DNA of 64,000 bases. Origin: Eledone cirrhosa. Lineage: Eukaryota. The notes beneath the pieces are model-generated. The model ran no database searches. It was given only the letters and a program-made list of their open reading frames with translations, and was not told the origin of the DNA. This document shows, one piece after another, positions 6,246-62,118 of the stretch. Position numbers and translations under genes: made by a program. Within the stretch, counting starts at the first letter, position 1, and the number at the start of each line of letters is the position of its first letter. The stretch lies in the NCBI GenBank assembly GCA_964016885.1, contig OZ024740.1:179490001-179554000 (forward strand). The letters are read 5' to 3'.

Positions 6246-6342
6246 CAAAATTTATAAAACACACTTTGTATTTTATCTGATGAAAGCGTACCAATGCTTT
6301 TGGTACCCTTGAAATATATATTAATTTATAAAACACACTTTG

Positions 6343-6404
6343 TATTTTATCTGATGAAAGCGTACCAAGGTTTTTGGTATCCTTGAAATATATATAATAG
6401 AATA
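6343..6404 (+). ncRNA. Type I hammerhead ribozyme (pLTR of element 2)
   Basis: TATTTTAT-CTGATGA(6351)-stem II AAG.GTACCAA/TTGGTAT.CTT-GAAA(6385)-TATATA-TA^-ATAGAATA. Stem III is short and palindromic. An upstream partial copy has its core at 6277. Confidence 0.85.
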
Positions 6405-6597: not shown

Positions 6598-9050
6598 ATG
6601 GAATTATTTAGGATTTCTTCTTCTCTAAAAGATGTACTCTTACCTAAAAATAAGGAATATCTAAAACAACTCATTGAGAAATCTGACTCCTTTATACGAA
6701 GACTTAGGTGGCGTGCCTTCCATTTCGTTAGAAAATCGGATGAAAAAAAAAAAAATCCAGTTACAACTTTGATCTTATCTTCAAATCTAAGAAGAATCCA
6801 CCTAGCAACAAACTATTAACTGAATTTGAAAATGAAGTAATATATTTTATACAAAACATTAAATTAAAAAAAAAAATGTATAGGCCAGGAATATCTTAAA
6901 GGCCTCAAAAATGATATAGACAATCTTGAAAAAACTAAGAAGATCCTCGTAAAATCTGATAAAACTAATAATTTATATGGAATGGAAAAGGACGAATATA
7001 ATAACCTTATATTGAAAGAACTCAGAAAAAACTACAAAATAACAACAAATGAAGATCTTTCAACGTTATTATTTCAGAGAAGCTTCTGAAATAATTCATA
7101 AATTAGGCATCCTAAATAGGACCGAACCCTTTATACCTAGAAAACCAAAAAATAACCTGAAAGACCACAAAAGAAAATTTGAAATAGAACTACCAGTCAG
7201 ACTCATAGCACCATCTAAATCAGACTTAGGCATAATTAGCAAACATATATTAGATATAATAGCGGTGGATTGGCAGTATCGGTAGAGGGTCGGACGCCAT
7301 GCTTTCCAGCATAGTTACGTCCCTTTACGATCTGAGTTCAAATCCCGCCGAGGTTGACTTTGCCTTTCATCCTTACGGGGTCGATAAAATAAAGTACCAG
7401 TAATGCACTGGGTAATTGCTGGCCTTGTGCCTAAAGTAGAAACATATATTAGATAGAATACCACAACATAAAGAAAAATCACACTTGAAACTAAGGAACG
7501 GTACTAATGAAATTATAGATTGGTTTAATAACATAAAATTAAAACATAACAAAAAATTCATTCAAATGGATATTGCAAATAACTACTCCTCTATTACTCC
7601 TAGCTTACTTAATAAGGCTCTTATCTACGCATCTAAACATACAGACCTCTCTAGTGATGAAATGAACATAATTCTAACGGCACGGAATACACTAACATAA
7701 TTCAATAATCATCTCTGGACAAGAGCCGACAGAAAAAACAATTTTGATATCACTATGAGATCATCTGACTCGGCGCAAATAACGGATCTTGATGGTTTAT
7801 TTATTAATAATGTACTGCATAGGAAAATGCCAGAGGTGACCGGTGGTTTATATCGTGACGATATGCTGCTTTTAATTGAAAACCATAGCAATTGTGAAAT
7901 TAATAGGAAAAGAAAATATATAATACAATTCTTCAATAACTACAACCTTAAGTTAGAAGTAGAGAATAACTACACAATCGTTAACTTCTTAGACGTAACC
8001 TTAAACCTTAGCACAGGTCTTTACTATCCTTTCCATAAAATTAACGAAAATCTAAATTACGTAAGTTTTAACTCTAATCATCCAAGAAGTATTAAAAACA
8101 CTATTGTCAATCATGTCCAACAACGGATTTCACGCATCTCTGGTAATAAAAATATTTTTGATGATAAGGCTGAATATTATAATGAAGCTTTAATTACAGC
8201 AGGATATTCGAATACAATTAAATACATTGATAACAATAACATGGCAAATCATGTATTAATTATAATAATAATAAACAATTTAACTTAAACACTAAACCAA
8301 ACCAAAATAACTAGAACTAGAAATATTATTTGGTACTCCCCCCCCCCCACATTATAATTAAGCGTTAAAACACCTTTAGCAAAGCTATTCTTTAAAACAC
8401 TAGATAAATGTTTTCCTAAAGCCCACAGATACCACTCTATTTTTAACAGGCATACTATAAAACTATCTTACTCTACTTCTATGAACATAGCACTATATAT
8501 AAATAGAATTAATAATAGAAACTTAAATTTAAACCCTAACCAAAATAACCAAAATAGCAATAATAATATTTCTAGCAATATCCAGTATAATAGTACCGTT
8601 CCGACAACAACAACTCCATAAAATGTAACTGTAGAATCAAATCAAACTGTCCTTTACAAAATAATTGTTTAGATAAAAACGTAGTTTATAAATGCACAGT
8701 TAAAACTAGAGATAAAATATTTAACTATGTTGGTGCCACTTCTACAAAATTTAAAGAACGCTGGAATAACCATAAACATACTTTTAAAAGATCTGATAAA
8801 AAATCTTCTAGTTCACTTTCACATCTTATATGGAACTTAAAAGGCAAGAATATAGACTATTCAATATCTTGGAAAACGATTTCGAAAGTACCTGCGTACT
8901 GGAATATGACTTTATCAAGATTCTGAAACTTGTGTATCAAAGAAATGTTTTATATAATTAACTGTCAAAACTCTATTAATCTAAGAACAGAGTTGTTTTC
9001 TTCTTGCAGACATAGCCAAAATTCCACGTTCAGAACTATGTTTGATTTAT
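6598..9050 (+). pseudogene. PLE RT + GIY-YIG endonuclease, disrupted and SINE-interrupted
   Basis: LIEKSDSFIRRLRWRA, NLKDHK, VRLIAPSKSDLG, FIQMDI, GLYRDDML, VNFLDVTLNL, IIWY, CNCRIKSNCPLQNNC, NVVY...NYVG in shifting frames. Confidence 0.9.
7262..7443 (+). mobile_element. tRNA-derived SINE with Meta-type central domain, inserted in element 2
   Basis: A box TGGCAGTATCGG, B box GAGTTCAAATCC, central GCCGAGGTTGACTTTGCCTTTCATCC...GGTCGATAAAATAAAGTACC. AAACATATATTAGATA is duplicated at 7241-7256 and 7440-7455 (TSD). Confidence 0.9.
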
Positions 9051-9292: not shown

Positions 9293-10179
9293 AATTTTTT
9301 ATTTTTTATTTTTAATTCTTACATTATTATTTTGCTAATGACACCCTCTAAAGATATATTTTTTAGATGTAAATTGATAATCATTAGCTGACATTAGAAA
9401 AATTTATCCTCTTCATGACAGTTTCTCAGATAAGCACATTACGTATCTCCTCTTTTTTGATTTTCAAACATTCACACATCTTTCGACTAAAATAATTAAT
9501 CTCACACTAACTCTTCAAATGTATCGATTAACAAACAAAACTGGAGTTATCTTTCCTTTCTCAATCGTGTAAACTTATTATATACTTAACTTCGCTAAAT
9601 TAACAATATTATGAAAACATTTTCAATAATGAACAAAATATTCAAATCTATAAATTGTTCTCATCTCATAACTTGAAATACCTATTAATTTACATAAAAC
9701 ACAAGATCAACTTCCCTCGTAACTCATATTATAAACAACTAATAATTGTAAATTTTCTATATCTCTTTAATACATATGCAATTATTAATATATACAGATA
9801 TTTATACATATGACCTACTACAATATTGTAATAAGATAAATACTTACAAACATAATTATCCATATAAGTATATACATAATATAGGTAAATATACAAATTT
9901 GTTTCCCCAAATTAACGTAAGTATAAGGTCTTCTTTTCTTTTGCCTTTTTCTTTTTTTCTTTTTCTTCCTTTTCTTTCTTTCCTACTAATACAAACACAT
10001 ATCTAAATTCTCCATAGCGTCTAAAATAAGGTGTTTTCAAACGTATGCCTCAACCTCATTTACATATTCCTTTGCACACTCATCTTAACAATTTGAAAAA
10101 ATCTGTCTCTAAGTCCACTGGCCAAGGAAAACTTCAAACGTTAAGGTTGGCTATGTCAACATTGATAAAACACACTTTG

Positions 10180-10241
10180 TATTTTATCTGATGAAAGCGT
10201 ACCAAAGTTTTTGGTACCCTTGAAATATATATAATAGAATA
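10180..10241 (+). ncRNA. Type I hammerhead ribozyme (3' pLTR of element 2)
   Basis: CTGATGA at 10188, GAAA at 10222, same stems as 6343-6404. Confidence 0.85.
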
Positions 10242-12972: not shown

Positions 12973-13175
12973 AAGATAGCTTAACGGTTCAAGTTTTCCT
13001 TGGATATCCAAGGAAAACTTGAACCATTAAGCTATCTTTCCTTGGTTATGTCAAATTTTATAAAACAAACTTTGTATTTTATCTGAGGAAAGCGTACCAA
13101 AGTTGTGGTACCCTTGAAATATATATAATAGAATAAATATGTGTTTATAAATATAGTTTCCATTTAATTAATATA
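12973..13175 (+). mobile_element. 5'-truncated element-2-family copy with inverted 5' segment and HHR
   Basis: Near-perfect palindrome 12973-13038 centred on GGATATCC, then pLTR with CTGAGGA...GAAA hammerhead at about 13073-13135. Confidence 0.8.
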
Positions 13176-13382: not shown

Positions 13383-13880
13383 TAACTCATTTCATTTAGA
13401 ATTCGCCTGAATACATACATCTATGGTTTTGATTGTTACGGAATGCAACCACAAATACAACTTAATGAGACAACACCTTATGCCGTTAGGTTGTCATGCA
13501 ACATTTATCATTGAATATGGGCTATAGATAAGAGGATGGACGCATAGCATTTTTGTTCTTCCACAGCCCCGAATATAGACACATAGAAAGATAGATAGAC
13601 GGAGATAGAGATATATGTATATATATATATACATGCACAACCATGCACAGACATATGTGCAAATAGAAGTGCACACGTAAGCGTACACACCTATATGAAA
13701 AGGTAAATTTGTACGTAATATCAATAAAGTTAAATGGAACTTAAGACTTCAACTCAAACGTAGAACCATAATATATGATACGTATATCATAAACGAAACA
13801 TTTGTCTTTCGACTCATCTCAGTATTTAATCCGAAGAATCAGCTAGTCATAGATAATGTTTTATGGTGATTAGAACATCA

Positions 13881-14063
13881 TAATTGTTTCTACTTTAGGC
13901 ACAAGGCCAGCAATTACCCAGTGCATTACTGGTACTTTATTTTATCGACCCCGTAAGGATGAAAGGGAAAGTCAACCTCGGCGGGATTTGAACTCAGATC
14001 GTAAAGGGACGTAACTATGCTGGAAAGCATGGCGTCCGACCCTCTACCGATACTGCCAATCCA
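13881..14063 (-). mobile_element. Meta-type SINE
   Basis: Near-identical reverse complement of 7262-7443. Confidence 0.92.
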
Positions 14064-18758: not shown

Positions 18759-18886
18759 ATTATTGGTTGTGTCAAACGGTCCAATGAAATGTGTGTTAGC
18801 AATATTAAGTTCTCCACGCTTTTTGTATATCTCCAATTCCATTTATGGGAACAGCTAGATGATGTAAAACGGAGTATTTGTATTAA

Positions 18887-19232
18887 AATAAAGATCCGAA
18901 GGCATGGTATAAATTTCCAATCATTTTAATCACGACACATGTTTCAATAAGAGATAGATCGTTCGTGTAGCCATGATCGATTATCACTGAACTCGTCAGG
19001 TGAAAATGAATTTTCTCAAATCTATGATATGAGGCTGAAAATTAACGGTGTTCATTCACATGAGGGACTAAACTCTGTAAATGAACACCGTTAATTTTCT
19101 TATTCGTATCAAGTATTTTTCATCTGACGAGATCAGTGATAATCGATCATGGCTACACGATCGATCTATCTCTTATTGAAACATGTGTCGTGATTAAAAT
19201 GATTGGAAATTTATACCATGCCTTCGGATCTT

Positions 19233-19236
<4 letters not shown>
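18887..19236. repeat. 350-bp fold-back with a hammerhead in each arm
   Basis: The arms are reverse complements. Plus arm: CTGACGA 19124, long stem II, GAAA 19178, ACATGT palindromic stem III, GUC site at 19189. Mirror copy on the minus strand at about 18930-19005. Confidence 0.88.
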
Positions 19237-19307
<71 letters not shown>

Positions 19308-19316
19308 AAAAAAAGT

Positions 19317-19383
19317 AAGTCCTTCATCAGTGACCCTCCAACCGTCCCAGGCATTTCATCGCTTTAAGGGCCATATGCCTCAG
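19317..19383 (-). ncRNA. Permuted hammerhead, copy
   Basis: Reverse complement of 20548-20614. Confidence 0.8.
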
Positions 19384-20037
19384 GATGGTGCGAACAACGG
19401 CTAAAAAAAGTCGTTGGGACACGTAAATAAAGGAGACGTTAGGGTAACAAACAAAATGGTTTAAACAACGGAAAGTGAGAAGAAATAGACAAGTCCCAGA
19501 TCTCTATGAATATAAACTCGGTGAAATCGTGAACAAGAGACAAAAGACCATCAAACCTGGTTGAAATGTGAGCAAGGAAGGAATTTCGCACAGGTCTAAC
19601 GAGGGGGGGGGGGGGTGAAGAAGAAGAAGAAGAAGAAGAAGAAGAAGAAGAAGAAGAAGAAGAAGAAGAAGAAGGGGTCTGGTCTACGAATTCGGTAAAC
19701 ATAGGTTTTGTGAAGTCGCAGACGAAAGAGAGAGAGAGAAAAAAATTCCATATCAGCTTGACCAAGACCGCGCGAGAAAAGAATTACACACAGGTCAAAC
19801 TTGAAGGAGGAGGAGGAAAGAGGAGGAGGAGAGGTAGTGACAGAGAATGAGTGAGTGAAAGTTGAGGAGGAGGCTAACAGAGAGAGAGACTGCTAGAAAG
19901 GGTAAAAGGTACAAAGAACGAGAAAGGGTAAAAGGTACAAAGAACGAAACAGACGGGTGGCAGCAGAAGAAAAATTATGTGTAAATATGATAATAATGAT
20001 GGCTGCGCGTTGCAAATGGTGGTGCATATGAAAATGT

Positions 20038-20104
20038 AAGTCCTTCATCAGTGACCCTCCAACCGTCCCAGGCATTTCATCGCTTTAAGGGCCATATGCC
20101 TCAG
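20038..20104 (-). ncRNA. Permuted hammerhead, copy
   Basis: Reverse complement of 20548-20614. Confidence 0.8.
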
Positions 20105-20547
20105 GTTCGTGCGAACAACGGCTAAAAAAAGTCGTTGGGACACGTAAATAAACGGGACGTTAGGGTAACAAACAAAATGGTTTAAGCAACGGAAAGTGAG
20201 AAGAAATAGACAAGTCCCAGATCTCTATGAATATAAACTCGGTGAAATCGTGAACAAGAGACAAAAGACCATCAAACCTGGTTGAAATGTGAGCAAGGAA
20301 GGAATTTCGCACAGATCTAACGGGGGGGAGGAGAAAAAGTAGAAGAAGAAGAAGAAGAAGAAGAAGGTGAAGAAGAAGAAGAAGAAGAAGAAGAAGAAGA
20401 AGAAGAAGAAGAAGAAGAAGAAGAATGAGATCTGGGACTTGTCTATTTCTTCTCACTTTCTGTTGCTTAAACCATTTTGTTTGTTACCCTAACGTCCCCT
20501 TTATTTACGTGTCCCAACGACTTTTTTTAGCCGTTGTTCGCACCAAC

Positions 20548-20614
20548 CTGAGGCATATGGCCCTTAAAGCGATGAAATGCCTGGGACGGTTGGAGGGTCA
20601 CTGATGAAGGACTT
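20548..20614 (+). ncRNA. Hammerhead ribozyme with non-circularly permuted strand order
   Basis: AGGCAT-A^-TGGCCCTT-AAAGCGA-T-GAAA-TGCCT-GGGACGGTTG-GAGGGTCA-CTGATGA-A. Stem III 6 bp, stem I 8 bp, full core, A10.1-U11.1. Confidence 0.8.
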
Positions 20615-21280
20615 ACTTTTTCATATGCACCACCATTTGCAACGCGCAGCCATCATTATTATCATATTTACACATAATTTTTCTTCTGCTGCCACCCGTC
20701 TGTTTCGTTCTTTGTACCTTTTACTCTTTCTCGTTCTTTGTACCTTTTACCCTTTCTAGCAGTCTCTCTCTCTCTGTTAGCTTCCTCCTCAACTTTCACT
20801 CACTCATTCTCTGTCACTACCTCTCCTCCTCCTCTTTCCTCCTCCTCCTTCAAGTTTGACCTGTGTGTAGTTCTTTTCTCGCGCGGTCTTGGTCAAGCTG
20901 GTATGGAATTTTTTTCTCTCTCTCTCTTTCGTCTGCGACTTCACAAAACTTATGTTTACCGAATTCGTAGACCAGACCCCTTCTTCTTCTTCTTCTTCTT
21001 CTTCTTCTTCTTCTTCTTCTTCTTCTTCTTCTTCTTCTTCTTCTTCTTCACCCCCCCCCCCCCGTTAGACCTGTGCGAAATTCCTTCCTTGCTCACATTT
21101 CAACCAGGTTTGATGGTCTTTTGTCTCTTGTTCACGATTTCACCGAGTTTATATTCATAGAGATCTGGGACTTGTCTATTTCTTCTCACTTTCCGTTGCT
21201 TAAACCATTTTGTTTGTTACCCTAACGTCCCCTTTATTTACGTGTCCCAACGACTTTTTTTAGCCGTTGTTCGCACCAAC

Positions 21281-21347
21281 CTGAGGCATATGGCCCTTAA
21301 AGCGATGAAATGCCTGGGACGGTTGGAGGGTCACTGATGAAGGACTT
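21281..21347 (+). ncRNA. Permuted hammerhead, copy
   Basis: Identical to 20548-20614. Predicted cleavage after 21290. Confidence 0.8.
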
Positions 21348-21460
21348 ACTTTTTCATATGCACCACCATTTGCAACGCGCAGCCATCATTATTATCATAT
21401 ATATATATATATATATATATATAACTTATAAGAAGAAAGCAAGAACGCTGAGGAGTTTTC

Positions 21461-21521
21461 CTCATCAGTTGTCTACTGGGGGGTTCGGATATTTCTTCGC
21501 TTTAAGACAAGATATTTACCG
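21461..21521 (-). ncRNA. Second-family permuted hammerhead
   Basis: Minus strand: CGG-TAA-ATAT-C^-TTGTCT-TAAAGCGAA-GAAA-TAT-CCG-AACCCCCCAGT-AGACAA-CTGATGA-G. Confidence 0.7.
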
Positions 21522-22074
21522 CACAGAGTTTTCAATAACTGGGTAAATTATTAGGAAAACGGAGGAAGGAGGGTAGGAAAATAGAAAGGAAAAGGGAGAA
21601 AATAGAAAACAGAAAAAAAAACACAGCGAAAGAAAACAACAAACCGACCAATGTGCGAGAAATATGCGAGCAATTTAAGGTAACAAAATCCAAGACCACA
21701 GCGACAAGAGAACTTAAGTTCAAGAGCGTGTGGGCGAGAGAAAAGATACACGTCTGACCCCTGCGAGTTGTAAGTGAGAAAAGGACTACTAGAGGGTCAA
21801 GGCGGTGGAAACAATGAGGTGGCTGGCAGAGAGAGGATGAGTGAAGGTGAGAGGAAGAAAGGGAGAGGAAGAAAATGGGGTAAGAGTAGATAGTAACGAA
21901 ATAGTAGGTAGAAGGAGAGAGAAGACTGTTCACAGCGAAACATGATAAAATATATATAGAACAGGATTGGCTGTGTAGTTGCTAGTTAAGGTAGCTTAAA
22001 ATGGAGTGAGAATATGAAGAAATCAAGAATGGTGGGGCGGGGGGGGGGGGGGGTCATATATATATATATATAAA

Positions 22075-29488: not shown

Positions 29489-30220
29489 CATGTTAAGCTG
29501 GAGAGAATATATATATATATATTTTTTTTTGTGTGACAGTTCATCGCCAACAATTACGAGATCCAACCACGAGACAGATACCACTAAGTGCATATCTAGA
29601 CATTTGCGCAAGTAATAAGACACTCAAATTCCAAGTCTTCCCATTTTACCTTTGCACTAACAATACAACATAACAAATACGAATAAATAAGGAAAATATT
29701 TATTCAAAAATATAGACCAGCATTATATATGGTTTAATATACATTATGTCAACACCATAACATGCTAACCATCCAAACAGACACATACATATACACACAC
29801 ATAACACCCATCATACACACACCGTATCCCCCCCCCCACACACAACTCGCTCCCCCATTTCGACTAATAGAATCACTTTCCTACACACAAAATATATATA
29901 TTCTCTCGATCTTAACATACTAACCATTCTCCCACACCCACATACACACACACACATAACACCCAAACACACACACAACTCCCTCTCCCATTTCTACTAA
30001 TACAATCATCTTCCTACACACACACACACACACAACCACACACATAAACATACATATCTCTATTTTCTTTATTTCAAGAGAAAGTCTGAATTCTGACACC
30101 CCAGCGAACCAGCCATATTCACTGAACCAGAACAATTCTCACCATCCAATTTCTCTTGACCATTATCTTTTGTTTGGTACAAAATTCTCTAGAAGACGAC
30201 AAAACAAATTCCCAAATGCG

Positions 30221-39392: not shown

Positions 39393-41369
39393 CACCGTGT
39401 AACATATTTTTTTGTTCCCCGGTTCTAAGTGTCATTTCATGGTTTGTTTCCCATTATTATAAAAAAACACTGTATGATCTGAATTCAAATCCCGCCGAGG
39501 TTAACTTTGCCTTTCATCCTTCCGGGGTCGATAAAATAAAGTACCAGTAATGCACTGGGTAATTGCTTGCCTTGTGCCAAAAGTAGAAACAATTATTATA
39601 AAAAAACACTATTATTTAATCAGAAGTTTGCGTTTGTGGTCAGGAGTTTGATATTTCCAAATTTTCATATTTTTCAAGAAAAACACATTTTTTTTTAAAT
39701 TTATCAGTTCATATAATTAAATCAACAGAGTATATATTTATTTTATTACACCAGCTTATCAAAAGCAAACAAGTAAAAATAAATAACACTTATAAAGCAA
39801 CTTATACACGTCAGAAATGACTGGATTTCCTGGATTTGCGGTCGTAGTCCAGGTTGCATTCCCGCACTAGCCCCAGATATAGTCCCCCATCACCTTTTCA
39901 TTGTAGTGGCCCTTGTACCTCCGCTTTCTCTCTCTTTTACATCTTGGTGGAATCGTTCGCCTTGTTCTTCTGATTAGGCGCCCATATTGTCTTTGAATGT
40001 TTCCAGGTGAGCGTCCAGCATATGGAGTTTAAGCGACATCCTGCATCCCATGGCACCAAAAGCCTTTATCAGATCCTGCACCAGTTGCTGGTAATTTTCA
40101 GCTCTGTAGTTACAAAGAAAGCCCTTAACAACTGCCTTGAAACAGTTCCATGCTGTTCTCTCAATCCTTTTGAGCTTATTGGAGAACTCGGTAGACTCAA
40201 CACCTTCGTTAGCTGAGGTCCAACAAAAATTCCACCTTTGATTTTGGCCTCAGATAACTTGGGGAAGAACTCAAAAAGGTACTTAAAAGCGGCTGATACT
40301 TGGTTGAGAGCTTTCACAAACTGCTTCATCAACCCCAACTTAATGTGCAGTGGCGGTATGAGCACAATCCTGGGATCAACCAGTGGCTCCCACATGACGT
40401 TCCGGGTCCCAACTACAAATTCTGCTCGCTGCTCCCAGTTCTTTCTTTTCTAGTTGTCAGATGTGGCTCTGCTGTCCCAAAGGCAGAGGAAGCATTGGAA
40501 TTTGATAAAGCCTCATTGGAGTCCAAGCAGGAAAGCCACCATCTTGACGTCTCCAATGATTTCCCAATTGTACTGGTTGTATTGCAGAGCTTCCAAGAGA
40601 ACTTTGACAATGTAGTGGTCTTCCTTCAGGCAGACTGAATGAGCTAGGGGCAGTGTCGGGGAGTTGTTTCCATTGTGGTGGAGCTGTCTATAAATAGCCT
40701 TGGGCACAAACGACACCCCAATAATGTCAAACAGTCCAGGCACATCATGGCAGAAGCAGAGGCCATCCCTAAGAGTGTAAAAGCCTGAGAATGGTTAGCA
40801 TCGACTTCTCTGACTTGTCACCTGCACTTCCTCCTTGACCAAGTTCCACTGCTTCATCCTGCAGACGAATAGCTCTGCATTGGACTTGGTCAGACCCATA
40901 TCCCTGACCAAGTCATTGACTTCTTTTTGGTTTGGGAAGTGAGGAACTTTTTCTGGTACCTCAGGCAGGTAATCCAAGTCCTCAGCATCCATCTCTTCCT
41001 CTTTATCAGAATATTTGTCTTTAAATAATATAAAATAATACTAATCATACTAATGAAAATGCAGTTTTTAACAATTTTATATTTTATTGCACTTTTATAA
41101 TTTTCTGTAGGTATTACTCTATATTTTATAATTTTAATTTAACCTGAAACATATATAAAAAAAAATCATTTAACATAAGCAAATTAAACTTACATACAAC
41201 GTAAAATACAGCATACAAATAATTCTAGTGAATAGCTTAGAATTTTTACAAACCCAAAATTTTAACTGTTTAATAGCACTTTTTTAAAATTTATTTGGGA
41301 CCTAAGCAACACAAAAAAGTGATTACAAGCCAAGAACAGAGAAAAAAAAAATGTTTTTGTTACGCGTTG
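39393..41369 (-). mobile_element. Chapaev3-like (CMC superfamily) DNA transposon, internally degraded
   Basis: Termini CACCGTGTAACA / TGTTACGCGTTG, TTA on both flanks. Transposase motifs FPNQKEVNDLVRDMGL, IIGDVKMV, PPLHIKLGLMKQFVKAL, EEQGERFHQD, MGDYIW. Family assignment is from recalled motifs. Confidence 0.8.
39474..39591 (+). mobile_element. 5'-truncated Meta-type SINE inside the DNA transposon
   Basis: Same family as 7262. 19-bp duplication ATTATTATAAAAAAACACT at 39453-39471 and 39592-39610. Confidence 0.9.
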
Positions 41370-43490: not shown

Positions 43491-45149
43491 TATGTATAAT
43501 TCTGACTGAGTGAGCATGTGTACGTGTAATGAAGTATATAAATATTCAACTTTGAAACATGAAACTATAGGAATTAGAAAACTAAAGATATAAATATACT
43601 TTAGTATAGTGATCTAAATAGCTATTGCATACTCCTATTCTGCGATCTTTAAACTACAGTTATATGAAAACTATTTACAGTAGAAATAAATATGTCTACA
43701 ATGTTACTACTCCTAATAGTATTATTTATTTAAACATTACTGATGTTTTACTCGAGATTCGGTTTGCTAAAGTATACTTAATACAAAAAAAAAATAATAT
43801 ATATATATATATACATTCTACAGCTATTTTCGTTTCAAATAACGTAAGGTAATGCTAATGGCGCACACACACAGAGACACACACACATCAGCCCCACACA
43901 TAGACATATATCCATACACATACACACATATACTCAGACATAATTATACACTCGCGTACACACATATAAACACACACACGCATATATACTCACACACATA
44001 CATACACATCATTCTTCCTCTCTTTCTCTCTATATACATGTATGTACATAGTAGCTCACATAGTGATAACACACATAAACACACATATAGTATTGCTGTT
44101 CATTTTTTCAAAGAATAAAGTTAAATCTATAAATAATTATTTAGCGGCATTACCGAAATAAATCTGTGATTTCAATGACTTGTGTCAAATGTGTTGCTAA
44201 CCTTCAGATCCCTTTAATTCTTTGTTGTTGCGTATTTCGCATATTGATTTCACAGCACATGTCATTCGGCTATGTACAACAATAAAAGATAAAAGAACAC
44301 AACATATAAGGCACGAAACATTAAAAGTGCTAGAGATTTATCTCAATAAAAACAAAAAAAAACAAACAAGAAATACTCTAGGCCTTTGATATTTATTTAT
44401 TCTTCTCAGCTATAAAGTTCGGTTTTCAAAAAAGCTATTTCAAACATTTTGTGACCTAATTTCCGTTATTTTTTTCTTGCTCTCGAAAATTCTTAATATG
44501 ATTTGACCTTTTAATACATGGGTGTATATTTATTTCAGACACCTTTTCAATATACACTACAATTTTAGCATCAAAACATATCCATAATGTTTGGCTGCGG
44601 CAATTCCGATAGCTGACACTATAATCATGGCTGTACAGATACACACATATATGTGGCACACACATACACATACATGTAGCACCATTCTCCCTCTCACTAT
44701 CTCTATCTCAATCTCACACACATATTCACAAATATATACGATTGGCTAAAACAACACTGCAAAATATACCCGCTGGCCTTGTCAAAAGTCCACCATATAA
44801 CTGGTGTTATTCAGTCGAGGAAAGATTTGTGTAGTCCATGAGAGTTAAGGAAAACAACAAAATAAAAAAGATATTTGCGGCGTATCTGGGGAGCCAATAT
44901 TCCTGTGGGAATAATGTATTTCAATATGTAATATCAGACGTGTCTCGTGTTTCCTATTCACAGAAATAGCAAGCATGTGAATTGTTAGGGGTGTAGCAGT
45001 AATGGAGCATAAGTCACCAGGAACACAGGTACATTTTAAGAAAAGATACATTTCCATTATATAATATTTTAACACCTATACCACGAATATTTCCGGGTGT
45101 AAATCTCTCTATGCCGAAAGCTATCAATAGATAATATTTAATAGCATAG

Positions 45150-45283
45150 ATACGTCCCTTTACGATCTGAGTTCAAATCCCGCGGAGGTTGACTTTGCCT
45201 TTCATCCTTACGGGGTCGATAAAATAAAGTACCAGTAATGCACTAGGTAATTGCTGGCCGTGTGCCTAAAGTAGAAACAATTA
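45150..45283 (+). mobile_element. 5'-truncated Meta-type SINE
   Basis: Matches 7316-7443. Confidence 0.9.
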
Positions 45284-46350
45284 TTTAATAGCTTTACATA
45301 ATGCAACAAGCATTACAGAAACCTTCTACGTAAAATCCTATAACGTAAAATGTTAAAGCCTGCATACACCTGTTCTTCTAGATTGATGTGAAGGCAATTG
45401 CCGATTAAAAAAGTAAATAAATAAGAAATGCAGTCTGCCTTTGATATTTTAAAAGTAATTTGGGAAATATTAAGAATTTGCCAACATCCGATCGACAAAT
45501 CCATGATGACATATTGGTGCTGAATATAGGCAGAAATGCCTGTAATAGTGCATAATCAGTCAGGCTACTGGTACCGTCTAGCCCAGCACAACCTGCTCCT
45601 GGTCGAGTGGTCTGTGAATAAATCGATTCCCACACCAGACACTGGTCATGTGAGGAAGGTAAGTGGAAGCCCAAGTACAGAAAATAAAAATTATTAAAAG
45701 AGCGGATGAACTCTTTAGAGCCAACTGTCATCGACTCCAACTATAGATTAAATATCCTCAGCAACCAGCTATTGGCCAAGCGTGGTGAGAATGCCCCCCC
45801 CCCTTCCTGACATGACTAAAAGCAAACAGAAACCGGTGGAGTGGAACCAGAGACGAATCCTCCAACAAACGTGAGAAGGAAACTGAATTGGATTGGATTG
45901 GATTGGAGTGTGTTGCATGGAATTATTTCAAGTGACGAGAATCCCTTTAATATTTCATTTAAAAACAGTCGTTACCTTAGTATCTATAATGGTGGTATCC
46001 GAATGACATAAGATAAAAAATGAATAAATAAGATAAACACAAAGCTGAATCCTAATTTGAATTCTGAAAATATTTAAGAATGAGTTTTTGCCAAGTCAAG
46101 TATTTCACAAGTTATTGACTTTTTCCGATAAAGTATCAGATCAAACAGTTTCCGAATATCAGCAGGAAGTCATGTAACTCTTTGTTGCAATATATCTTAA
46201 AAGTGAGTGTAACACAGACTGTCTGCATAGATAATAGTAATGACTTCTTACGTCTGAGGCCCAGATTCATATTTTCTTAAGTGGTAAGGCATTCTAAGGA
46301 GAGGTGGACAGCAGGTCTTCAGAGGAGAAACCCCTCAAGCAAGGCCCTGT

Positions 46351-55879: not shown

Positions 55880-56594
55880 ATATATATGAATGTATATATA
55901 GTGTATTTTGCAATACACTGTATGCTTAATTAAAAGCATTTCGAAGGCCTTACGCTATTGCTTTAGAGTAGTGACAGTCTCACTTACTTTAAATTTTCCG
56001 CAAACAGGGGAGATAAAGCTGACAGAGCTCTGTTTCGTACTTTTTGGTACTTATCAAAGCTAAGTACTCCACCTGTTTGCTGAAAATCATGAATGTTTGA
56101 TTCTTATAGAATTCTAGTATTAATCAGGACATGATTATAAAGAGCGGTTGCCGGTCAAGCAGAAATTAAACATTAGAATTGGTGCTCTGAAATAGCGATA
56201 TATATATGAATGTATATATAGTGTATTTTACAATACACCGTATGCTTAATTAAAAGCATTTCGAGCACCAATTCTAATTTTCAATTCCTGCTTGACCGAT
56301 AACCAATCTGTATAATCAGTTCCTGATTATTACTAGAATTCTATAAGAATCAAACATTCTTAATTTTCAGCAAACAGGTGGAGTACTTCGCTTTGATAAG
56401 TACCAAAAAGTCCGAAACAGATCTCTGTGAGCTTTATCTCCCCTGTTTGCTGAAAATTTAAAGTAAGTGAGACTGTCACTACTCTAAAGCAATAGCGTAA
56501 GGTCTTCGAAATGCTGTTAATTAAGCATACAGTGTATTGCAAAATACACTATATATACATTCATATATATATCGCTATTTCAGAGCACCAATTC

Positions 56595-58301: not shown

Positions 58302-58661
58302 CTTGGCTATTTGTGAGCTTCGTTATTCTAAACCTTCACTTGCTCACTCACATGATCTCAAGTCTTGTCTGATGATCTTGTGTGTAACCATATGAGAGTC
58401 CATAGCAAAATGGCTTAGCGATAATAAATGAATATTTAAACTCTACTTCGGTATTGAGTTTTCATGCTTACCACCTTCAAAAATTTACGTACTCCCAGGT
58501 CTTGAATAATCTTCCCTAACCCAGGCTTATTGATCCGTCAAATCTTTTCTACCACCCACGGTTTGTATTATATTTTGCTAATCTATTTCCAGCGAAATAT
58601 TATTATTAGTGATTCATATTTATACGGCAGCTGATGAATCTAATGATAATTTTATTTTATA

Positions 58662-59414: not shown

Positions 59415-59598
59415 ATTGGCCGCATCGGTAGAGCGTCAGACACCATGCTTTACAGCATAGAGTTAGGGCCATTTACGTTCTGAGTTTAAATCCCGCCGAG
59501 GTTAACTTTACCTTTCATCCTTACGTGGTCGATAAAATAAAGTACCAGTAATGCTCTGGAATAATTGCTGGCCTTTGGCCAAAAATAGAAACAATTAT
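59415..59598 (+). mobile_element. Meta-type SINE
   Basis: Same family as 7262-7443. Confidence 0.88.
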
Positions 59599-59639
59599 TA
59601 CCACGCCTTCTAATATTTGGGACCCGATAGTGCAATCAA

Positions 59640-61715: not shown

Positions 61716-61725
61716 ATAGAATTAA

Positions 61726-62118
61726 TTAATTGTTTCAACTTTTGGCACAAGGCCAGCAATTACCCAGTACATTACTGGTACTTTATTTTATCGACCCCGT
61801 AAGGATGAAAGGCAAAGTTAACCTTGGCGGGATTTGAACTCAGATTGTAAAGGGATGTAACTCTTTGCGTCAAAGCATGGCGTCCGACCCTCTACTGATA
61901 CTGCCAATCCAGAATTAATTAATAATTATTAATAATTGTTTCTACTTTAGGCACAAGGCCAGCAATTACCCAGTGCATTACTGGTACTTTATTTTATCGA
62001 CCCCGTAAGGATGAAAGGCAAAGTCAACCTCGGCGGGATTTGAACTCAGTTCGTAAAGCGACGTAACTATGCTGGAAAGCATGGCGTCCGACCCCCTGCC
62101 GATACTGCCAATCCACCG
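61726..62118 (-). mobile_element. Two adjacent Meta-type SINEs (61726-61910, 61930-62118)
   Basis: Both are reverse complements of the 7262 family. Confidence 0.9.

Follow-up and report, generated by a model that had tools for sequence, protein, structure and literature searches.

The closest described relatives of the element treated here come from three bodies of work, and what is said of them below holds for the portions of those sources consulted. Among permuted hammerhead ribozymes, S-G-C is a non-circular order of the conserved blocks; S-G-C and C-S-G ribozymes cleave in vitro, and the motifs were drawn from metatranscriptomes and metagenomes, the genomes of known organisms contributing one GCS candidate only (Eckert, Friedrich, Weinberg, & Weinberg, 2023; PMC10085705). 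Animal genomes also harbor non-long-terminal-repeat (non-LTR) retrozymes (Cervera & de la Pena, 2020, PMC7229834; Li, Clavereau, & Pollet, 2026, preprint 10.64898/2026.07.22.740005). Naiads, for which (TA)n targeting is typical among Penelope-like elements (PLEs), are described as being without canonical hammerheads, some of them being marked “HHR_core” or “HHR_half_core” (Craig et al., 2021; PMC8557442). Here we consider a 64,000-nucleotide (nt) stretch of the Eledone cirrhosa genome (assembly GCA_964016885.1, contig OZ024740.1, positions 179,490,001 to 179,554,000, forward strand), called the window and numbered from its first letter. On its minus strand lies what we judge to be, with good probability, a decayed copy of a ~105-nt hammerhead-core module, predicted to self-cleave and situated at the 3′ terminus of a non-coding repeat of Penelope type, the repeat itself likely having arisen from Naiads as a non-autonomous derivative.

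A first-pass annotation of the window had placed a permuted hammerhead at 21461–21521. The letters that it quoted are indeed found there on the minus strand, with the predicted scissile C17 at 21511, and its interval falls inside the module, but the full module is larger, 21455–21560. The block order is S, G, C: the cleavage site comes first, then GAAA, then CUGAUGA. As read from sequence and covariation, the complete order is P4a–P0–stem II 5′ strand–P3b–(3 × 6 loop)–stem III–H17^–stem I–UAA–stem II 3′ strand–GAAA–stem III′–P3b′–stem I′–CUGAnGA–P4b, the caret marking the predicted cut. P0, P4, the kink-turn described below and the link to Naiads did not figure in the first-pass annotation. 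The parts of the window copy are as follows.

21455–21560, minus: whole predicted ribozyme module, decayed (helix pairing analysis)
21554–21560, minus: P4 5′ strand GUUUUCC, 7/7 paired with the post-core tail (duplex −9.5 kcal/mol)
21533–21553, minus: hairpin P0, 8/8 pairs (two G•U), immediately 5′ of stem II (two-sided changes in family A)
21527–21532, minus: stem II 5′ strand, AACGCU in the family and AAAACU here, 2/6 paired (pairing counts)
21520–21526, minus: P3b 5′ strand, 5/6 paired around a bulged C (pairing counts)
21517–21519, minus: predicted kink-turn non-bulged strand, 3n-2n-1n = G, U, A (kink-turn definition in the consulted part of PMC5061560)
21511–21516, minus: stem III 3′ strand and C17, predicted cut 3′ of 21511
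21505–21510, minus: stem I 5′ strand UUGUCU, 6/6 paired
21496–21504, minus: UAA joiner (21504–21502) and stem II 3′ strand (21501–21496), the “linker” of the first-pass annotation
21488–21495, minus: G12-A13-A14-A15.1 (GAAA, 21495–21492) and stem III 5′ strand
21482–21487, minus: predicted kink-turn bulged strand, G1b/A2b replaced by A, C here
21469–21481, minus: P3b 3′ strand (21481–21476) and stem I 3′ strand (21474–21469)
21462–21468, minus: core CUGAUGA (C3–A9), intact
21455–21461, minus: P4 3′ strand GGAAAAC

That the motif is real, and chance excluded, is evident from its abundance. Across the 3.0 Gb genome, the pattern UAAAGCG-NN-GAAA-N15-35-CUGAUGA, common to two of the carrier repeat families (A and B, the latter including the window copy), is matched 9,347 times and its reversed control once, and a 31-letter family B pattern has 304 exact matches against 0. 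Within the window, a descriptor of core, stem I and stem III finds 6 sites, whereas 200 dinucleotide-shuffled windows gave 0.015 sites on average; five are family copies, and the sixth, at 58631 on the plus strand, is without an upstream stem II. By model match the module belongs to none of the Rfam hammerhead types I–III: no hammerhead family appears among the 150 of 167 window matches listed, nor among 5 local matches. Outside collections yielded 58 matches in viral contigs, two of which, one identical sequence (L124, L146) in S-G-C order, passed the stem I/III test, and 33 in metagenomes, none family-like and the best with 9/10 pairs; these were treated as chance. Single-sequence folding gave z-scores of 0.24 to −0.93, which are uninformative, as pseudoknots would lead one to expect.

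The pairing of the helices was assessed on 41 hand-picked copies with parsable helices from families A, B and C. Stem I is paired in 91% of cells, stem III in 95% and P3b in 90%, compared to 34–45% for slid controls, and two-sided changes occur at 7/7 pairs of stem I, 3/5 of stem III and 5/6 of P3b. These counts bear out the proposal that the hammerhead, permuted as it is, is under selection, that its stems I and III covary and that the predicted cleavage site is rightly placed between them, as they do the pairing of UUGUCU with AGACAA in stem I. Stem III likewise pairs as had been claimed (4/5 in the window copy, which has A where the family has G16.5), but its supposed CGG/CCG extension was rejected, since the B-TT subfamily lacks CGG and the conserved register differs, being CUGGG(G)/(C)CCCAG across the 3 × 6 loop. 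A pairing of AAAG with a downstream CUUU was also discarded, its spacing varying between families, and a pistol reading of UUAAAGCG, suggested by resemblance, was dropped in the presence of a full hammerhead core and stems.

Stem II required a different partner than anticipated. The first-pass annotation had assigned the segment after stem I to a conserved tertiary linker, UAAAGCGA, shared between repeat families. Only its UAA is single-stranded; the remainder forms the 3′ strand of stem II, co-varying with a partner that lies upstream of P3b. Over the 41 copies, the six bases before GAAA pair with this upstream strand in 65% of cells (80–100% at the inner three), compared to 41% with the tail after CUGAUGA. 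The partners differ by family: UCGC/GCGA in A, AACGCU/AGCGUU in B-TT and GGCGCG/UGCGCC in C. Among 29 family C copies picked by DNA similarity, each of the six positions of the upstream stem II is paired in 83–97%, whereas the tail, whichever register is taken, finds partners at three of the six only. The linker is shared insofar as UAAAGCG is common to A and B, but it is exact in just 1/29 of these C copies. Through the upstream strand, stem II abuts G12 in the families; it is broken in the window copy. In family B, an A at 11.1 goes with one A fewer upstream (16/16 parsed copies) and a U or G at 11.1 with an upstream A that is mostly kept (11/13), 17/46 copies being unparsed. The G•A mismatch that had been listed as a weakness at 10.1/11.1 rests on the wrong partner, as the G following CUGAUGA pairs instead with the 5′ leader.

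This pairing of the tail with the leader constitutes P4, and the P0 hairpin fills the space between P4 and stem II. After removal of copies with TA repeats in the leader, P0 with at least 7/8 pairs plus P4 with 4/4 was found in 55/74 A2, 16/18 A1, 47/79 B and 3/5 C copies, compared to 28/1480, 6/360, 5/1580 and 3/100, respectively, with shuffled leaders; the single copy of a fourth family, D, that was tested had no such combination. In 25 family A copies the six-helix model is 93.5% paired, with two two-sided changes in P0, and in family C, P4 reaches 7 pairs and P0 11. Together, P4 and P0 are predicted to form a four-way junction in the gap between A9 and 10.1, where the chain would enter and exit. 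In family B, the 3′ strand of P0 can alternatively pair with the end of stem I and the opening bases of the core, which may represent an off-state. Directly after P4, the same family has a poly-C tract whose length varies widely and which often cuts P4 to three pairs.

The 3 × 6 loop between stem III and P3b matches the kink-turn sequence: set between two helices, it has a 3-nt bulge, G1b•A1n, A2b and either G or U at 2n. Across families A, B and C, A1n is kept in 174/176 loci, G1b in 172/176 and A2b in 176/176, while the bulge is variable; these counts are inflated, as some of the loci were fetched by patterns demanding core letters or GA. At 2n, family A and most B-TA copies have G, while B-TT, B-TG and C have U; both forms are known for kink-turns (Huang & Lilley, 2016; PMC5061560). 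The former copies resemble kink-turns in which the 3-nt bulge is followed by G•A and A•G, and the latter resemble Thermus thermophilus Kt-23 (PMC5061560); unlike the kink-turns of that source, the present one is known by sequence match alone. The window copy has lost it. Our literature search returned no report of a kink-turn within a retrotransposon hammerhead.

The carrier of the window copy, family B, is a ~565-nt non-coding dispersed Penelope-type repeat that inserts into (TA)n, and no credible reading frame was found in its unit. There are 1,863 candidates, of which 40 were scored, at 81–86% identity to the window copy. Its copies lie head to tail with a period of 543–579 nt in 11/13 spacings measured, and occur also as inverted truncated pieces; contigs from one public run, used only for variant letters and tandem joints, contain the head-to-tail joint 22029→21452. 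The surrounding DNA is, as had been noted, unlike the 730-bp unit of family A, the likeness being confined to matches of 16–26 nt within the ribozyme, with E of at least 0.02. Family C has ~1,600 candidates, and family D comprises two old sites (L273, L274) that match the ribozyme motif of Octopus Naiads, with no Naiad frame beside either. Extension of the 3′ end into (TA)n no more than 140 nt from the core is found in 60/86 A, 26/36 B and 11/14 C copies. The families consist of non-coding tandem units with one ribozyme each, and show (TA)n targets with tandem and inverted 5′-truncated insertions, as has been reported for PLEs. In the window, the B copy and a younger family A insertion meet tail to tail in a single (TA)n tract.

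21425–22056, minus: family B element, about one unit, ribozyme near its 3′ end (alignment, copies 81–86% identical)
21397–21423, no strand: (TA)n tract common to the 3′ ends of the B copy and the neighboring A insertion
22056–22072, no strand: (TA)n tract at the 5′ end of the B copy
19310–21396, both strands: family A insertion, 733-nt unit, a minus tandem (19310–20405) and an inverted plus part (20427–21396), both ending in (TA)n
21244–21345, plus: family A ribozyme, intact, same layout, predicted cut after 21290
20511–20612, plus: family A ribozyme, predicted cut after 20557
20040–20141, minus: family A ribozyme, predicted cut after 20095
19319–19420, minus: family A ribozyme, predicted cut after 19374

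Elsewhere, a 95-nt tandem array (L381) is built from the 3′ half of a family C ribozyme. A 5′-truncated Penelope-type element with two canonical minimal hammerheads is nested in a family A array (L061, 2260–4870; also L062), and its start, CUGAUGA-AGGAC, is identical to the family A core and tail. The reverse transcriptase fragment between two A ribozymes at these loci was rejected as a partner of the A units, being part of this nested piece.

Which PLE lineage the carriers derive from was approached through the Naiad consensus file of Craig et al. (2021; PMC8557442), read by eye at 23/23 CTGACGA and 59/62 CTGATGA places, at the ends of six records and in 3/59 file parts; all statements on Naiad records below hold for this coverage. 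The core-opened layout, with P4, P0 and an upstream stem II, closes 9 of 54 Naiad families, with different sequences: three from Acropora, the record before Naiad_Plae (Morbakka by file order), Plae, EuTe, Obim, Ovul and Esco. Their hosts are corals, a box jellyfish, an acanthocephalan, a clam shrimp and cephalopods. In 8/9, all but the less perfect Esco, the upstream stem II is paired 6/6 and starts with G-C; GACACC, GGCCCC, GACGCC and GGCUCC, each with its complement, are examples. Both Octopus consensuses, whose motif family D matches, also carry the kink-turn sequence. Five other records, Hpol, Nbra-2, Nbra-3 and two unassigned, have clean type CSG hammerheads; in Ppla, Skow-1 and the incomplete Adux and Dcar, neither layout was seen. 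Like Naiads, the present repeats show (TA)n targeting, tandem and inverted 5′-truncated insertions and a structured 3′ end; they differ from the Naiads described in PMC8557442 in that A, B and C are protein-less, and the searches made in the genome, which were narrow, found no match to an autonomous Naiad. A first Naiad motif search gave 3 genome matches, one of them a decayed copy whose relatives (80 hits) are all short or broken, with a longest open frame of 223 amino acids (aa) and a single lineage; a second gave 0. The insertion pattern by itself is not specific to Naiads, because Neptune-type PLEs fit it too. A GIY-YIG search brought up C-terminal-endonuclease PLEs, some with intact frames of 844–1096 aa; none of them was seen to end in a core-opened ribozyme of its own. 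Three of these loci (L091, L092 and L093, with intact frames of 938, 844 and 1096 aa, reverse transcriptase before endonuclease) are candidate trans-acting enzymes. The A, B and C carriers are likely non-autonomous Naiad derivatives.

Within the families, the window copy is best viewed as a relic. Its core is intact (CUGAnGA and GAAA, A15.1-U16.1, non-G at 17), as it is in 19/30 of the nearest B copies. Its kink-turn GA is substituted, and one U before the joiner is lost. Because stem II and the kink-turn GA are gone, this copy is probably dead, that is, without cleavage, and it is the family and its layout that would constitute the finding. Contigs from the public run have the family letters at the positions decayed in the window copy, and most of those aligned have GA at 21483 and 21484.

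Should the module work as its layout suggests, stem II would stack on A9•G12 as in any hammerhead, and P0 on P4. The kink-turn would bend stem III back and so bring P3b to the distal ends of stems I and II, where its contact would replace the usual one between loop I and loop II. By analogy with hammerhead chemistry and with the cleavage of S-G-C and C-S-G RNAs, the cut would fall 3′ of H17, once per tandem unit, and could not occur before transcription had passed through the core at the 3′ end. Four helices, P4, stem II, P3b and stem III, would keep the two cleavage products together, an arrangement that may favor ligation into circles, as in non-LTR retrozymes, or hand-over to a PLE reverse transcriptase. 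A PLE reverse transcriptase/endonuclease acting in trans could then reverse-transcribe the RNA at (TA)n targets, with tandem and inverted 5′-truncated insertions as the outcome.

Several observations weigh against this account. The two-sided changes represent few family-level events, in three or four families, rather than 41 independent ones, and many loci were retrieved with patterns that contain core letters. The pair 10.1–11.1 is non-Watson–Crick in A (U•U, C•U) and B-TG (A•G) and missing in B-TA; a natural hammerhead tolerates U•U as its first stem II pair. P4 often has 3 pairs in B, and 4/4 in only 49/79 copies. Since Eckert et al. (2023) found, for the alignments covered in the consulted text of PMC10085705, no insertion of more than two nucleotides between CUGAnGA and the adjacent stems, a four-way junction at A9/10.1 is without tested precedent. 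Only 4/30 of the nearest B copies carry all the features scored, and conservation of the ribozyme (0.94) hardly differs from that of the remainder of the B unit (0.93); the low pass rate and lack of excess conservation would be expected from neutral decay after insertion, with selection acting only on source copies. On the Naiad side, the flanks fetched around the remnants of Naiad reverse transcriptase were devoid of a ribozyme, and narrow searches found no credible likeness of the remnants to the A, B or C units; it is the C-terminal-endonuclease PLEs that have intact frames in this genome, the Naiads found being only broken.

Three alternatives remain to be weighed. The one that survives best, although we consider it unlikely, is that the module derives from a hammerhead but now serves as a structural signal where the element ends at its 3′ side, bound by reverse transcriptase or a host protein and no longer in need of cutting. 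The kink-turn is a typical site for L7Ae-family proteins (PMC5061560), the 5′ junctions of truncated copies show no clean peak at the predicted cleavage site, and the first stem II pair is non-standard in A and B. Such a signal would not explain why CUGAnGA, GAAA, A15.1-U16.1 and a base other than G at 17 persist from family to family despite turnover of the stems, or why, in the Naiad records, the same core letters are kept across phyla. Slimmer is the chance that the helices are right and the one-copy order is not catalytic, the active unit being a domain-swapped dimer or two adjacent tandem copies. PLE hammerhead variants that cleave as dimers exist. The units here do occur in tandem, and three arms between two junctions in one chain make a geometrically demanding arrangement; yet monomeric S-G-C RNAs with directly connected helix ends cleave (Eckert et al., 2023; PMC10085705), the kink-turn would provide an intramolecular route, and the autonomous Naiad consensuses have one module per 3′ end. 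Finally, an ordinary type SGC hammerhead, with a stem II of one or two pairs between the tail and the bases before GAAA and UAAAGCG as a tertiary linker, would accord with the S-G-C order, with the core-adjacent pairs that can form (A-U in A, G•U in B-TT, two G-C in C with one base skipped) and with the existence of natural stems II this short, but is very improbable given that the tail pairs better with the leader (P4, 4–7 pairs), that the linker co-varies with the upstream strand across families and is all but never exact in C, and that in the Plae, EuTe and Acropora Naiads the tail is unable to pair with the strand before GAAA.

Returning to the module opened at its core and predicted to self-cleave, we lean, with somewhat lesser confidence than for the locus itself, toward a broader proposition: Naiads would not be ribozyme-free, many of them having non-circularly permuted hammerheads, either of type CSG (nematodes) or core-opened, the gap between A9 and 10.1 holding a four-way junction (cnidarians, an acanthocephalan, a crustacean and cephalopods), the cephalopod form being braced by a kink-turn. 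The core-opened form would self-cleave and make up a major class, with about ten thousand copies in one animal genome, that is invisible to standard searches. A literature search, in which subscription papers and supplements were thinly covered, found no description of a permuted hammerhead in Naiads or of a helix insertion at A9/10.1. If true, this would offer a possible answer to the stated puzzle of Naiads thriving without hammerheads, and would make a ribozyme role in Penelope-like retrotransposition testable in the Naiad clade. The kink-turn, in a natural self-cleaving RNA, would suggest control by host proteins.

Other features of the window were noted in passing. A repeat at 6249–6395, also at 10156–10232 and 13051–13126, has CUGAUGA, a hairpin and GAAA followed by UAUAUAU, and resembles the canonical minimal PLE hammerhead. 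A fragment at 29533–29734 has 84% protein identity to part of the intact C-terminal-endonuclease PLE frame of L092. Long imperfect palindromes at 18875–19249 (376 nt) and 55901–56549 (650 nt) may be like miniature inverted-repeat transposable elements or be inverted PLE pieces. A ~185-nt dispersed repeat resembling a short interspersed element has at least 7 copies (7263–7456, 13877–14063, 39470–39599, 45143–45291, 59415–59600 and 61721–62118).

How, then, does the module compare with known hammerhead classes? With types SGC and CSG (PMC10085705) it shares the non-circular cyclic order and the 3-nt joiner between stems I and II, and, in our own mapping, P3b corresponds to their extra helix at the far ends of these two stems. 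It departs from type SGC in that the 5′ strand of stem II there directly follows CUGAnGA, whereas here the core is opened at A9/10.1 by P4 and P0: block C is not unbroken, its tail pairing with the leader and the partner of stem II lying upstream. P3b is, moreover, joined to stem III through the kink-turn sequence, and the module occurs in thousands of copies in an animal genome, unlike the motifs of that source. If true, this hammerhead layout would fall outside the six-permutation scheme, which assumes an uninterruptible block C, and non-circular permutations would move from environmental RNA to high-copy animal genomes. With the non-LTR retrozymes (PMC7229834; 10.64898/2026.07.22.740005) the carriers share non-coding tandem units with one hammerhead each, probably PLE-mobilized. 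Retrozymes have canonical or minimal type I hammerheads, units of 150–450 bp and circular RNA that has been shown; the present units measure 545–740 nt and carry a permuted ribozyme, whose S-G-C order and opened core set it apart from type I. Together, these comparisons describe a predicted hammerhead that shares the cyclic order of types SGC and CSG, yet lies outside both type SGC and the type I retrozymes.
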